Source: a virus (Duplodnaviria; Caudoviricetes). Taken from it: a DNA stretch of 64,000 nucleotides. Positions 8,874-47,791 of this stretch are shown in pieces; positions within the stretch are counted from its first letter, which is position 1, and each line of letters starts with the position of its first letter. The stretch lies in IMG/VR virus record IMGVR_UViG_3300037484_000435, positions 160,001-224,000 of that record. One strand, 5' to 3'. A model generated the notes under the pieces. The model was not told the origin of the DNA and ran no database searches. It saw nothing but the letters and a program-made list of their open reading frames with translations. A program made the translations under genes and the position numbers.

Positions 8874-8915
8874 TACCTCCTTTATACTGTCTACACATAA
8901 AAGAAAGTAAATTAA
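8874..8915 (-). promoter_or_regulatory. RBS-sequestering hairpin plus upstream TTAATTT motif
   Basis: Minus strand TAC(T)TTCTTTTAT-loop-ATAAAGGAGGTA pairs over the AGGAGG RBS (G:U pairs included), checked by hand. Confidence 0.65.
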
Positions 8916-8925
8916 TTTAGGTAGA

Positions 8926-9846
8926 CTAACGGCTACCGAAGATAACTAAATCGGGGCGAGCTTCTGAAATAGGTATTTTATTTACTTTACATTTCCCTTT
9001 CTCCCAAGAAGTCAAAGTAAGATGGCTATACAACCTTCCCCAAGTTAAATCTAAGTTTGGAGGAGTATCCTTTAGTTCCTCCCTTAACTTCGCACCTTGA
9101 TTTACGTAACCATACAGGTGCGAAGGAACTCCTTGCGGGCCCGAAGCCATACCGCCGTGCCAGAGATGGATAACAGGGCTATCCAACATAGGAATAAAAG
9201 AGTCGATCCCATATTTCTTCTTCCAAAAATCTAAGAAATGATTGTCTTCCGAGCCTATGAAGTTAGTGAAGCGCTCATCTATACCACCCAGCCTTATATA
9301 ACTTTCTTTCCTAAAAACTGACATATAATACACAAGTTCATATTTTGCGTTATCTTTTGTTATGTGGGTGGGGTAGTGAGACTTTAAATAGTTATCTTTT
9401 ATACTTTCCATATTACTAATAGGAAACTCGTAGCAATGATAGGGGAATGGCATAACAAATCTGTCCTGCTTCTCGTTTACCAAATCAATTGCTTTCTGCA
9501 AGAACAACGGGTCCAAAATAACCATCTCTGGGTCTGTTTTCCATAGAATATCGTGGCTACACAACTTAACCAAAATGTTGTAACGCTCGGCAGGACACCC
9601 GAACGGATTATTTACTACTGACTTGGAACGGTCCCAGTCCCATTTCTTGACGGACTGAAAAACATTACTGTAGTCACAAAGAACCTCGTCTAGGTTATCT
9701 GAACTACGGCTATCCATAACATTAAGTTCAACCCCGACTCCTGCCCTTGTCGTGTTATCACGTATAGCCTCTAAGCACCACTTCAATAGGTGTGCTCTAT
9801 TGTGAATTGATGTAAATACAGATATTGTTATTCCTTTATTATACAA
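8926..9846 (-). CDS. GT2 glycosyltransferase (paralog of 6212..7117)
   Basis: Start refined to TTG 9846 (AGGAG RBS). SIHNRAHLLKWCLEAI, DSRSSD, KTDPE, GGIDERF..GSED, HLWHG. Confidence 0.85.
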   Translation of the reverse strand: MYNKGITISVFTSIHNRAHLLKWCLEAIRDNTTRAGVGVELNVMDSRSSDNLDEVLCDYSNVFQSVKKWDWDRSKSVVNNPFGCPAERYNILVKLCSHDILWKTDPEMVILDPLFLQKAIDLVNEKQDRFVMPFPYHCYEFPISNMESIKDNYLKSHYPTHITKDNAKYELVYYMSVFRKESYIRLGGIDERFTNFIGSEDNHFLDFWKKKYGIDSFIPMLDSPVIHLWHGGMASGPQGVPSHLYGYVNQGAKLREELKDTPPNLDLTWGRLYSHLTLTSWEKGKCKVNKIPISEARPDLVIFGSR

Positions 9847-9908
9847 AATTCTTTTTCTCCTATAATTCGCAAACAACAATAAAGCAAGTTAGTGTCGTTT
9901 CTCCCTTC

Positions 9909-10958
9909 CTAAAGAGGAGCAACTTCTCCTTTCTCCCTATAAAATGACCTAGTACCGCGAACACGGGTATTAATACCACACTTCTTCAAACACCGCTGTA
10001 TCGTAATAAAGGACACATTGAAAATCTGAGAAATCTCTGAAATAGTCATGCCTCTCTCGTAATAATCTACAACCAAGGAATAGTCAGATATCAATAATTT
10101 CCTCCTCGATTCAATAGAACGTGTTACTGACCCACCACCATTAATATACTTAGAGATGGTTGCATGACAAACACCATACTTAGATGCAAGGGATATAGTA
10201 CTTTCTCCCAGTTCATATTGTTTTATGACTGACTCCGCATCCTCCAAAGAAATTATCTTTCGATCATCCTGTCGTTTACCCAATAAACATATTTGTTTAT
10301 TTTCGTTCTCCATTATAGATAAATAGGAATCAAATTTATTCTTCTTTCTTGTTAGGTGGGGGATATCATCAGTATAATACATCCATTTATATAGTTTTTT
10401 AATGTTTTTAAAACTTTTAGTCTGAGCCACCACACACCCCACCCCATTACGAATAAAAAGGTTAATTCCTAATTCCTCCAATAAAAATAACCGCAGCCCT
10501 GTGACAAAATACTTAGATGATGTAATATTCCATATACCAATTAATATAGGAATACCTTTACGATGACCGACACCGTAACTAAAACACCCGTCGCCATCAA
10601 ACACCCCCCTTATAAAATCCACCATTAGTTCATCAGGTATAAAATTGGGGAATTTTAAAATCGACGTCTTTCTTGGTACACAGCCAAAATAGGCTAATTG
10701 ATCACTCAGACGTAGGCTATTGATTTTGAGGCAAGTAGACCTTGACGAATCCATTGGGGATAAAGGTCGGCTACTTCCTAACAAGTCTTTAAAGTATTTG
10801 AGTAAATAACTGTCCGAACTCTGCAAACAGAGAGATACTGCGTTACTACCCCAATGATTGCACCCATCAGCGTACATCATGCCTAAGAAGTAAGATTTCT
10901 CTGGTGTATCCAAAGTATCTAGAAACCCCTCATTTAAAGTATATCTTCTGGGTGACAT
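9909..10958 (-). mobile_element. Free-standing LAGLIDADG endonuclease with C-terminal HTH repeats
   Basis: TPEKSYFLGMMYADG, FIRGVFDGDG; C-terminal YELGESTISLASKYGV and YERGMTISEISQIFNV HTH-like units. Confidence 0.9.
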
Positions 10959-10959
10959 A

Positions 10960-11002
10960 TACCGCTCTCCTCCTTTTTTACTATAAGAAAGAGGTAAGTT
11001 AA
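10960..11002 (-). promoter_or_regulatory. RBS-sequestering hairpin plus upstream TTAACTT motif
   Basis: Minus strand CTCTTTCTT-loop-AAGGAGGAG stem; TACC/GGTA could pair further out. Confidence 0.65.
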
Positions 11003-11060
11003 ATCAAGTATAGTAAAAAATATCTATATGTATAAGTTGACAGCAGGCTAATTGTTTAAC

Positions 11061-45853: not shown

Positions 45854-45859
45854 TTCTCC

Positions 45860-46294
45860 TTAATAATATTCCTTCGGCTCTTCGCTATCGGCAAGAGGCC
45901 AACTAGCACCACGACTTCCAGCAACTATTCTTAACTGCTGTGTCGCAATCATACGTGCCCTTCGCCCAGGCATTATCATTCTCCTAGTGTGTGGTCGCGG
46001 TTCATGGTATGCGTGTGTATTAGCTTCCGCTAAGTCAAGACCTTCAATCTCTTCCAAGGGTTTACCATCAATGATATCTCGCGTTATCCGTTTGGCTTCT
46101 TCATACTCTTCCTGTGTGTAAGCATCGGGAAACGTGATTTCTCTTATGATTTCATCTTCTGTGATTATAGGTGGCTTTTCACACCCACACTGACTACACG
46201 TAGCGTTCTGTAAATTGATTCCTCGCCATGCAAACCAACCACAGTCAGGACACTCGTGTTTTAGTATTTTACTTTTTATTAGTTTCTTAGCCAT
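45860..46294 (-). CDS. Zinc-ribbon protein, tandem paralog A
   Basis: HECPDCGW..W...CSQC...PP.ITEDE.IRE...AKRI...IIDGKPLEEI.GL. Confidence 0.65.
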   Translation of the reverse strand: MAKKLIKSKILKHECPDCGWFAWRGINLQNATCSQCGCEKPPIITEDEIIREITFPDAYTQEEYEEAKRITRDIIDGKPLEEIEGLDLAEANTHAYHEPRPHTRRMIMPGRRARMIATQQLRIVAGSRGASWPLADSEEPKEYY

Positions 46295-46304
46295 AAGGGT
46301 CTCC

Positions 46305-46745
46305 TTAATAGTAATTGTTCTTTCCCGTATGACCTACCACCTGAGAACCAACGAGTAAACCCAGAAGACTCCAACCATATAGTCCAGTTGCACACCCTCT
46401 GATATCGTTGTAAGGCACCCTAGATATATCAGCCAATGCCCATGTGTCTCCTTCCTCAAGAGACGCGAGCATATCGGAAGCGACATTCAATCCGTCTATT
46501 TCTTCCAAAGGTTTACCGTCAATAATCTCTTGAGCGATCCGTTTGGCTCTATCGTAATCCTCTGGGGAATACGTATCGTTGATTATCATTTCCCTTATTA
46601 ACTCGTCCTCAGTTATTTTAGGTGGGTTTGTAGACTCACACTGAGAACACCTTGGACTATCCACAATAGGATAATCCCGCCAAATCTTCCAACCACAATC
46701 AACACACTCATGTTGATAAATTTTAAACTTTAATTGTTTCTTCAT
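46305..46745 (-). CDS. Zinc-ribbon protein, tandem paralog B
   Basis: HECVDCGW..W...CSQC...PP.ITEDE.IRE...AKRI...IIDGKPLEEI.GL; start refined. Confidence 0.65.
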   Translation of the reverse strand: MKKQLKFKIYQHECVDCGWKIWRDYPIVDSPRCSQCESTNPPKITEDELIREMIINDTYSPEDYDRAKRIAQEIIDGKPLEEIDGLNVASDMLASLEEGDTWALADISRVPYNDIRGCATGLYGWSLLGLLVGSQVVGHTGKNNYY

Positions 46746-46758
46746 CTTTTTTTCCTTT

Positions 46759-47745
46759 TTACTTCTCGTCTTTAGTATATTGGTTCTTAAAGCAACCTCT
46801 ACGAAATAGGCCATGTTTTTCCTTTCCCCTCTTATAAATCGAATTCCATGAGCGGTTAGGTAATAGATTTAGAAGGTTTTCTTTTGAACGTCTTTCAAAA
46901 TTTTTAACAAGAAGGTCATCTTCTTCCGTGGTCCAATTTACGTAGTCAGTCCTCTCTACCACCGTTCTTCGTAACCCCAAGCAGGAAGCTTTCGACATAA
47001 GGGCGCGCCAATTTCTGTGAAATCTGGTAATTAATTCCTCTCTAGAAAGAATAGGGTACATTACCATAAAATCTTCAGTCTCAACTGTTGTCCATTCAGC
47101 CACCCTATGTCTGTTGTTCTCTATATAATTTAAGAACTTATTGTATTTACGTTCTAAATAAATAGTGGCATCTTGGTAAATATAATCAAAAAACCTTATT
47201 GCTGAAGCACCACTATACTTAATAATATAATATGTTTTTTCTGACTGAATGTTGTTACGTTTAACCCCTATATCATTAAAACTTTTTTGAATGAATAACA
47301 AAAGATCACGCGACCCACTCGTTACGCCACACCTAAGCCTGCTAGAGTTAAGAGTTAGATAAACAGTGCCATCCCCATCAAAATAACCTCTAATCCAGTG
47401 ATGGACCAAATGACTTGGTAAACCCCTTGGGGGGAGAATAGTAAAAGTCTTTCGCGGATGTAATCCATGAATAAATAATTGATTATATAAAGACTTATCG
47501 TAGACAACCAATTTCACCGTGCTTTGGCTATTCGGACGAGAGATTCTCTTATACTCATAAAGTTTTCTCCCTGGAGATATTAAATCTCTGATAATCTCAA
47601 GGTGACCTCTGTCACTTAAAGCAACCTCTATTGTTAAAAATGATCCCTTTTTTGTCGCCTGCACACAACCATCCGCAGCGATAAACCCTAAGATATACGC
47701 CTTCTCCTCAGTGTCAATAGTAGAAAAATCTAATAAATTAGTCAT
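46759..47745 (-). mobile_element. Free-standing LAGLIDADG endonuclease with two C-terminal WTxxE modules
   Basis: DFSTIDTEEKAYILGFIAADG; WIRGYFDGDG; WTTVE and WTTEED. Confidence 0.9.
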
Positions 47746-47751
47746 TGATTA

Positions 47752-47791
47752 TGCCTCCGTAATTAACCTCTTTACCGAGGCACAAAGTCAG
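47752..47791 (-). promoter_or_regulatory. RBS-sequestering hairpin plus upstream CTGACTT motif
   Basis: Minus strand TGCCTCGGTAA-loop-TTACGGAGGCA: 10 of 11 positions pair and cover GGAGG. Confidence 0.75.

Follow-up and report, generated by a model that had tools for sequence, protein, structure and literature searches.

The window considered here comprises 64,000 nucleotides (bases 160001-224000 of the 545,322-bp IMG/VR virus record IMGVR_UViG_3300037484_000435, which is complete according to CheckV) and harbours six genes for LAGLIDADG endonucleases with a leader of their own, the design of which recurs throughout this phage genome. Some 25 genes for selfish nucleases, which belong to four unrelated families, are preceded by a conserved AATTAACT box and then by a hairpin in which the ribosome-binding site (RBS) is buried. 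The six leaders of the window may represent copies of a portable 5' control module placed before the selfish nuclease genes of the phage, a proposal which is developed below and weighed against its alternatives.

Distribution of the leader across the genome

The initial annotation had tied the motif YTRAYTW, together with a hairpin, to the LAGLIDADG genes of the window, and this association extends well beyond the genes on which it was discovered. All 6/6 discovery genes have the motif at -62..-36, as do 15/28 of the remaining nuclease genes, compared with 14/243 ordinary genes (Fisher p = 9e-10), while YTRAYTW combined with an occlusion of at least 0.6 of the Shine-Dalgarno (SD) sequence or AUG is found in 13 of the same 28 nuclease genes and in 12 of the 243 ordinary ones (p = 2e-8). 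Genome-wide, SD pairing of at least 0.7 is predicted for 19/34 nuclease leaders vs 53/243 others, and the best-occluded leaders outside the LAGLIDADG family proved to have the same box and design. As assigned by Pfam, the carriers comprise 9/10 HNH_2 genes, one canonical LAGLIDADG_1 gene, two TnpB genes and about 10 LAGLIDADG_3 genes, accompanied by an iron permease and a few small open reading frames (ORFs) as the non-nuclease carriers. The leader can therefore no longer be regarded as a LAGLIDADG feature, since it also serves HNH_2, LAGLIDADG_1, TnpB and a few cargo genes. The iron-permease gene (genome 517000-517501; strong match to the low-affinity type, PF04120, E 1e-52) shows the same box and anti-SD hairpin as the neighbouring HNH gene and is a cargo gene using a nuclease-type leader.

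An unbiased 6-mer count over all upstream regions leads to the same box: AACTAA, TAACTA, ACTAAC and TTAACT rank directly below the SD words upstream of genes (3.3-4.2-fold enrichment, p ~1e-6). Within 80 nt of a start codon, 22 sense-strand intergenic copies of TTAACT are present, 16 of which fall at -42..-60. Orphan leaders devoid of a gene were also considered as a category and discarded, the apparent matches being the antisense strand of SD-plus-ATG regions. A 22-nt string, TTATTAACTTTATTTTTTAGAGA, which contains the box and no anti-SD, occurs at window position 60279 (minus strand) and at genome position 502536 (plus strand); both copies are intergenic and lie ~180-200 nt upstream of a gene.

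Consensus, register and co-variation of the arms

Alignment of 25 copies yields the consensus A-A-T-T-A-A-C-T-W-n-C-Y-T-n-C-T, with high information at 8 positions and a TAACT core that is conserved to 88-100%. The motif YTRAYTW is present as initially described and is better written AATTAACTW followed by the anti-SD (CYTNCT), which stands in a fixed register at +7..+12 from the first T of TAACT. The box is located 41-63 nt before the start codon and 30-40 nt from the SD, and a weak preference for T/A is seen at +21/+22 after it.

Past the anti-SD, the stems vary from copy to copy yet stay complementary, and the view that they differ in sequence and are equivalent in pairing is upheld by the energies of the arm duplexes: cognate arms average -15.9 kcal/mol vs -10.0 kcal/mol for swapped ones, and none of 20,000 permutations was as low as the cognate set (p < 5e-5). 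In 12/24 copies no arm pairs better than the cognate one, and the co-variation is weaker in the six window leaders (-13.0 vs -8.6). The pairing is under selection beyond a generic match between anti-SD and SD. Because the occlusion percentiles of the window leaders (given below), the excess of SD pairing before nuclease genes and the co-variation of the arms agree, the structure is taken as selected, and it is very likely that the hairpin is an RBS-sequestering device.

The six leaders of the window

All six leaders were recovered on the minus strand at the positions initially reported, with the listed seven-mers (TTAATTT, TTAACTT, CTGACTT, TTAACTA, CTAACT(AACT)T and (TTGA)CTGACTT) directly 5' of the stem. 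The pyrimidine-rich arm after the box pairs with the GGAGG region or, in leader 3, with the ATG; the 3' arm accordingly holds a paired SD in 5/6 leaders and the AUG in leader 3. Minimum free energies (MFE) range from -9.4 to -17.5 kcal/mol, and z-scores compare the MFE (in kcal/mol) with that of dinucleotide shuffles; the combined z of the six leaders, as a sum of the individual values, is ~-5.

Leader 1 (8868-8915, before the gene at 7917-8870) begins with the box TTAATTT at 8915-8909 and pairs a left arm at 8914-8900 with a right arm at 8883-8868, inside which lies the SD GGAGG (8880-8876) and which ends with the TTG start codon (8870-8868); its MFE is -10.9 (z -2.5) and the pairing of the initiation region 0.83. 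In leader 2 (10956-11002, gene 9909-10958), the box TTAACTT (11002-10996) is followed by the left arm ACCTCTTTCT at 10996-10985, which is an anti-SD, and the SD (10973-10969) is located in the right arm (10971-10960) ahead of the ATG at 10958-10956 (MFE -9.9, z -1.45, pairing 0.69). Leader 3 (29216-29264, gene 28247-29218) carries its box, CTGACTT at 29264-29258, immediately past the TAA stop of the upstream gene, and its stem joins 29252-29243 with 29225-29216, covering the ATG at 29218-29216 and leaving the SD (29231-29227) in the loop; with an MFE of -9.4 and a z of -0.48, the pairing reaches 0.99 for the start codon and 0.27 for the SD.

Leader 4 (32388-32440, gene 31398-32390) consists of the box TTAACTA at 32440-32434, a left arm at 32439-32422 and a right arm holding the SD (32403-32399), with an outer stem that extends to the TTG start at 32390-32388 (MFE -9.8, z -0.81, pairing 0.75). 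A tandem box, CTAACTAACTT at 43951-43941, distinguishes leader 5 (43904-43951, gene 42968-43906) and pairs with the region before the ATG (43906-43904), the SD being at 43916-43912 (MFE -12.4, z -2.8, pairing 0.82). The most stable structure belongs to leader 6 (47743-47795, gene 46759-47745), in which the box TTGACTGACTT (47795-47785) is followed by the left arm GCCTCGGTAA (47790-47772) and the SD (47758-47754) is located in the right arm (47762-47746) next to the ATG at 47745-47743; its MFE is -17.5 (z -4.7), 0/200 shuffles fold as well, and the cognate arm is its best partner.

For the assessment of occlusion, 739 genes were called genome-wide and positions -50..+6 were folded for the 264 genes that are separated from the preceding gene by 30 nt or more. 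The pairing probability over -14..+3 is 0.69-0.83 in the six leaders, which corresponds to the 92nd-100th percentile of 244 non-LAGLIDADG leaders; the RBS or start codon covered by these stems, as initially described, is thus more deeply hidden than in the other leaders of the genome. Among the non-LAGLIDADG leaders, only 8/244 show both a pairing of 0.69 or more and an MFE no higher than -11. A search of the window against Rfam returned no match.

Proposed mechanism and its precedents

The proposed module would consist of four parts: the conserved 8-9-nt box AATTAACTW, the pyrimidine anti-SD (CYTNCT) in its fixed register 2 nt later, a variable stem extension with an A-rich loop, and a 3' arm containing the GGAGG SD and the start codon. 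Its carrier genes belong to tightly packed same-strand arrays, made up of glycan genes in the window and of transfer RNA (tRNA) genes elsewhere. On long read-through transcripts, the hairpin would close over the RBS and the nuclease would not be made, as the structure statistics suggest. The box would most likely act as a compact promoter element without a -35 partner, and RNA starting 6-12 nt downstream of it, within or just past the anti-SD, would be devoid of the hairpin and hence translatable. Taken as a whole, with the promoter step included, this model is put forward tentatively, its probability being placed somewhat below an even chance.

The T4 precedent that inspired this reading is documented as claimed: in I-TevI, I-TevII, I-TevIII, segB and Aeh1 mobE, the RBS is hidden on read-through RNA, and translation relies on late RNA whose 5' end falls within the structure (PMC2988022). 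The leaders described here resemble that T-even switch in that selfish nucleases are placed in polycistronic units with the SD or AUG in the 3' arm of a leader hairpin, and in that a short conserved motif is so placed that RNA initiated at this point would be devoid of the 5' arm. Furthermore, T4 segB is located in the T4 tRNA gene region, as are the HNH_2 genes of this genome in a tRNA region of their own. Unlike the T-even switch, however, the motif is AATTAACTW instead of TATAAATA and lies 5' of the whole stem instead of inside it, and it is common to ~25 genes from four nuclease families, including LAGLIDADG and TnpB, and is nearly missing from ordinary genes. On this well-documented precedent and from its structure, the hairpin probably limits translation, a late promoter beginning inside the stem is plausible by analogy, and functional membership of the T4-type switch class is likewise plausible.

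Bacterial insertion sequences provide a second parallel. In the fold-back inhibition of the IS10/Tn10 transposase, RNA read in from outside folds back over the RBS, whereas RNA made from the promoter of the element itself begins within the structure; IS200 tnpA bears an SD-sequestering stem-loop. A mobile element that guards itself and its host against read-through activation is also what is proposed here; in place of transposases of bacterial insertion sequences, homing-type nucleases and TnpB of a phage are concerned, and one box is common to many unrelated genes of a single genome.

Evidence bearing on the promoter step

The requirement for a same-strand array supplying read-through RNA is reflected in the gene layout of the window, from which transcription is inferred: all real genes lie on the minus strand and are tightly packed, most gaps being shorter than 15 nt. 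The geometry also permits a promoter whose transcripts lack the 5' arm, with the anti-SD at +7..+12 after the box. Two box-bearing genes are antisense to their neighbours, namely the LAGLIDADG_1 gene at genome 523062-524213 (with a divergent gap of only 68 nt) and the TnpB gene at 463081, and because of this orientation both need a promoter of their own at that spot; neither shows SD occlusion. The predicted pairing of the box in RNA is erratic (mean 0.5, range 0.04-0.99), which fits recognition as DNA better than recognition as single-stranded RNA. Like the T4 late promoter, the box is compact and specific in both sequence and orientation, which favours a role as the matching promoter.

Several results weigh against this reading. 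Concerning the promoter itself, no conserved element is present in the 50 nt upstream of the aligned boxes and neither a -35 nor a -10 partner exists; at 6-9 nt past the box stand C or T, bases from which bacterial RNA polymerase initiates poorly; a search with Pfam revealed no sigma-70 r2 and no RNA polymerase beta/beta' domain in the phage, and sigma r4 matches are sub-threshold and fall in LAGLIDADG genes. The box hardly occurs before genes other than selfish ones and, in contrast to the T4 late promoter, is not seen upstream of ordinary gene blocks, a near-absence that is odd for a general late promoter. The exact box 8-mer occurs in 27 further copies within coding sequence. The rule that LAGLIDADG genes with their own leader bear the box holds for 6/6 in the window and not genome-wide, where about half of such LAGLIDADG_3 paralogs are devoid of it; in the related phage G005, which has >20 LAGLIDADG paralogs, most of these stand without the design. 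Comparison with shuffled controls, proposed as a check on all stems, set three of them apart (z -2.5, -2.8 and -4.7) and left the other three no more stable than shuffles by total energy (z -1.45, -0.48 and -0.81). Among the listed public runs, no RNA run contains the 10-kb stretch or one gene that were looked for, and the sole listed run with this sequence is DNA from a sediment metagenome. Finally, the core of the box is shared with a translational enhancer, as set out below.

Other roles for the box were considered and rejected. When it is read as a -35 element whose -10 would lie at 16-18 nt, control spacers score equally well, and scans of the window for sigma-70-like promoters and for terminator-like sites did not rise above shuffles (63 sigma-70-type sites vs 55.9 +/- 7.4). 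A frame-independent stop block formed by TAA/TGA in the box, as well as translational coupling in which a terminating ribosome melts the left arm, are ruled out by the many carriers that lie 150-370 nt from the upstream gene. The left end of an IS200/605-like element with its target-adjacent motif fails as a general reading, since a conserved 3' end or hairpin is absent and stop codons abut the next SD; such an end is possible for two or three TnpB copies.

Alternative explanations

The foremost alternative places the function of the box in RNA and dispenses with a second promoter. The box would be an A/U-rich standby or enhancer site, or a site for a protein or ribonuclease, at the foot of the hairpin and beside the start codon; the hairpin would keep translation of the toxic nucleases at a constantly low level, with the box determining how frequently a ribosome is captured by the transiently open stem. 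The enhancer in question is the epsilon element of T7 gene 10, UUAACUUUAA (quoted in PMC9590205); the box core UUAACU is identical to its initial six bases, so that a translational role is a live alternative. The likeness covers the 5' part of epsilon, UUAACU(U), and extends to a strong GGAGG SD downstream of both elements, whereas half of the box copies read UUAACUA, and epsilon acts in an open leader at ~9-10 nt from the SD while the box stands 30-40 nt away with a repressing hairpin in between. Measured against an epsilon-type arrangement (UUAACUUUA near the SD of an unstructured leader), most copies contain UUAACU, yet they are separated from the SD by the hairpin and are variably paired. 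An arrangement like that of T7 is found before the Cpn10 gene, where the box lies 11 nt before the SD and no hairpin is present. Geometry lends this alternative further support, since the box adjoins the stem at its 5' foot and is brought beside the AUG by the helix, as a standby site would require, and several of the boxes are paired with nucleotides immediately 5' of the start codon; moreover, the Pfam search detected no phage transcription factor. Standby sites, however, need no fixed sequence, whereas five positions of the box are conserved to 88-100%, and a pairing of 0.04-0.99 implies that the box is not consistently single-stranded. The box is also not found before other genes that are likely to be highly expressed, and the two antisense genes need a promoter at exactly its position. 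On balance, an action in RNA is considered unlikely, albeit deserving of serious attention.

Alternatively, the box and anti-SD could be mainly a recombination handle, or a relic of descent from a leader cassette, resembling the PeSL elements of T4-type phages; the hairpin would then be functional and the box without a regulatory role, nuclease and cargo genes having been swapped behind it by homologous exchange. PeSL cassettes, in which the stem-loop is a terminator combined with a sigma-70-type early promoter (PMC2839356, PMC4122927), are documented to shuffle unrelated ORFs (PMC4122927). In this genome too, a short motif-plus-hairpin module precedes unrelated ORFs and may travel between genes: the same 16-nt block stands before unrelated ORF families, and between the HNH gene (genome 515250) and the iron-permease gene (517058) ~20 leader bases are nearly identical and then diverge with compensating changes in the stem. 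Unlike in PeSL, the stem contains the SD, ends at the start codon and bears no T-tract, and no sigma-70-type promoter is detectable, so the leaders fall outside that class. As an explanation of the box, the handle is improbable: the conserved block spans only ~16 nt, which is short for homologous exchange, the flanks outside it are without similarity and a matching 3' end is lacking, little variation is tolerated in orientation or in distance to the start codon, and similar boxes persist in phages 50-61% identical in terminase, where neutral sequence would have decayed.

A third possibility retains the T4 arrangement by placing the activating promoter in the hairpin loop, where a -10-like TAnnnT would start RNA just before the SD, and assigns the box to something else. 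TAnnnT occurs in -40..-8 of 16/24 element leaders vs 93/227 others (p = 0.014, uncorrected) and TATAAA in 3/24 vs 5/227 (p = 0.03, uncorrected), to which the weak T/A preference at +21/+22 may be added. These loops are A/T-rich in any case and the p-values are uncorrected; the distance from the box varies, and control spacers score alike; where the leader is shorter, RNA would be predicted to begin within the SD or past it; and the sigma-70-type scan of the window gave the count near that of shuffles cited above. A promoter in the loop is therefore judged very improbable. The leaders are not members of the strict T4 class, which is defined by a TATAAATA promoter inside the stem: TATAAA is confined to the 3/24 loops, no sigma-70 r2 match was obtained, and no gp55-like factor was identified.

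That chance and base composition alone produced the pattern, purine-rich SDs and pyrimidine-rich spacers giving rise to stems and to an A/T-rich 7-mer without selection, is scarcely credible, for although 3/6 stems have z above -1.5 and the intergenic density of YTRAYTW is only 1.5 times that in coding sequence, the independent gene set (p = 9e-10), the clustering of positions at -42..-60, the advantage of cognate over swapped arms (p < 5e-5) and the combined z of ~-5 all contradict it.

Occurrence in related phages

A terminase search identified phages of 211-260 kb at 50-61% identity, and three related records were taken whole through the same pipeline. In these relatives, TTAACT words are only ~2-fold enriched upstream of genes, and a few clear copies of the design (TAACT, anti-SD and SD hairpin) are present, including two before TnpB genes in the closest relative. 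As copies occur in the relatives and are few, the design is older than this genome and not universal in the clade. At the level of single genes, 80 viral loci with LAGLIDADG relatives (31-39% identity) proved uninformative, owing to their distance and to the uncertainty of their start codons; the TTAACTTACC leader is found in only two of them (L077 and L085), which have identical upstream sequence. A single-protein search for one HNH_2 gene returned no viral relatives, a close strain without a cassette was not found (the best viral relatives being at most 47% identical), and 20 kb of the sequence gave no megablast match to GenBank phages. In two of the relatives, G001 and G002 (loci L159-L182), GTACTA, GGTACT and GTGTAC are among the most enriched upstream 6-mers, unlike in this genome, and may mark a different promoter or operator motif.

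The nuclease genes and their surroundings

The record contains 47 nuclease genes, and a phmmer search over all ORFs places the number of LAGLIDADG paralogs at 32, 9 of them in the window. All six leader-bearing genes match Pfam LAGLIDADG_3 (PF14528; one match weak), with PF00961 matching as well. Each is a LAGLIDADG_3-family endonuclease gene on the minus strand: 7917-8870 (317 aa; PF14528 E 1.6e-8, both LAGLIDADG motifs kept), 9909-10958 (349 aa; PF14528 E 6.6e-10, with C-terminal helix-turn-helix repeats matching families of that fold), 28247-29218 (323 aa; assigned by Pfam), 31398-32390 (330 aa; a weak Pfam match, with phmmer hits to paralogs at E 1e-30 to 1e-44), 42968-43906 (312 aa; Pfam and a phmmer paralog) and 46759-47745 (328 aa; PF14528 E 4.3e-14). 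The other three paralogs, also on the minus strand, were correctly described at the outset as coupled by stop and start codons and devoid of a leader, the overlaps with the upstream gene being 1-4 nt: the gene at 16476-17528 overlaps the upstream stop by 4 nt and has no box, that at 21936-22811 has a 1-nt overlap and no box at the leader position, and that at 34596-35432 overlaps by 4 nt an upstream 173-aa gene with an HNH motif. In the last case (window 34596-35950), a LAGLIDADG paralog is translationally coupled to an HNH-motif gene, giving two nuclease genes in tandem.

In an alignment of the nine paralogs, the motifs read LGFxxADG and IRGYFDGDG, D30 and G127-D128-G129 being invariant; two LAGLIDADG helices, each with a conserved acidic residue, are thus present in all nine, while the DNA-binding helical repeats vary. 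Because both motifs and the invariant acidic residues are kept, the proteins are probably active free-standing double-motif endonucleases.

The neighbours of the six genes are glycosyltransferases and sugar epimerases according to Pfam. The LAGLIDADG cassettes interrupt a sugar-modification cluster (window 8926-9846, 29265-30275, 32448-33464 and 47796-48755), the products of which are a GT2 glycosyltransferase, two NAD-dependent epimerase/dehydratases and a protein with a weak GT47-like (exostosin-type) match. Elsewhere, Aragorn detects 40 tRNA genes, with arrays at genome 24567-76847 and 515119-542578. HNH_2 genes lie directly between tRNA genes, the box beginning 4-26 nt past the tRNA 3' end, as in the array at genome 515119-516111 (tRNA-Gln, HNH, tRNA-Gln). 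The element has neither a matching 3' end nor a conserved 3' hairpin, and LAGLIDADG stop codons abut the SD of the next gene; from this lack of a shared 3' end, together with the position of HNH_2 genes between tRNA genes, it follows that the unit is the leader plus the ORF.

Some further features of the genome merit mention. One tRNA (genome 47126-47202) has a CTA anticodon and would read TAG. Three proteins of 403-412 aa with an HNH motif are encoded at genome 134812-136038 (-), 491145-492383 (+) and 27272-28483 (+), each gene being preceded by a non-coding stretch of 207-289 nt, two of which have conserved sequence in common just upstream of the SD; these loci look like IscB with a guide RNA. 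On the minus strand at genome ~326 kb, one open frame of 14,712 codons, which surfaced during the search for RNA polymerase domains, would constitute a giant gene of ~44 kb.

Significance

How huge phages tolerate dozens of homing-type nucleases has been little studied. It is possible, although doubtful at present, that this megaphage clade uses an undescribed compact promoter, AATTAACTW without a -35 element, which is dedicated almost wholly to resident selfish nucleases and fused in register to an anti-SD. LAGLIDADG, HNH and TnpB genes would then form a single regulon in which the parasite genes are silent on the transcripts of host genes and are made only from their own start, and cargo such as the iron permease could hitch on. 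The reuse of one short leader across four unrelated nuclease families offers a sequence signature for regulated selfish genes in metagenomic phages, as well as a candidate promoter or enhancer box for a clade without a cultured member. Furthermore, ~25 natural variants with co-varying stems provide a test bed for the T4-style rule by which a gene is silent on read-through RNA and active from its own start, a rule which would be extended to free-standing LAGLIDADG genes, to TnpB and to a megaphage.

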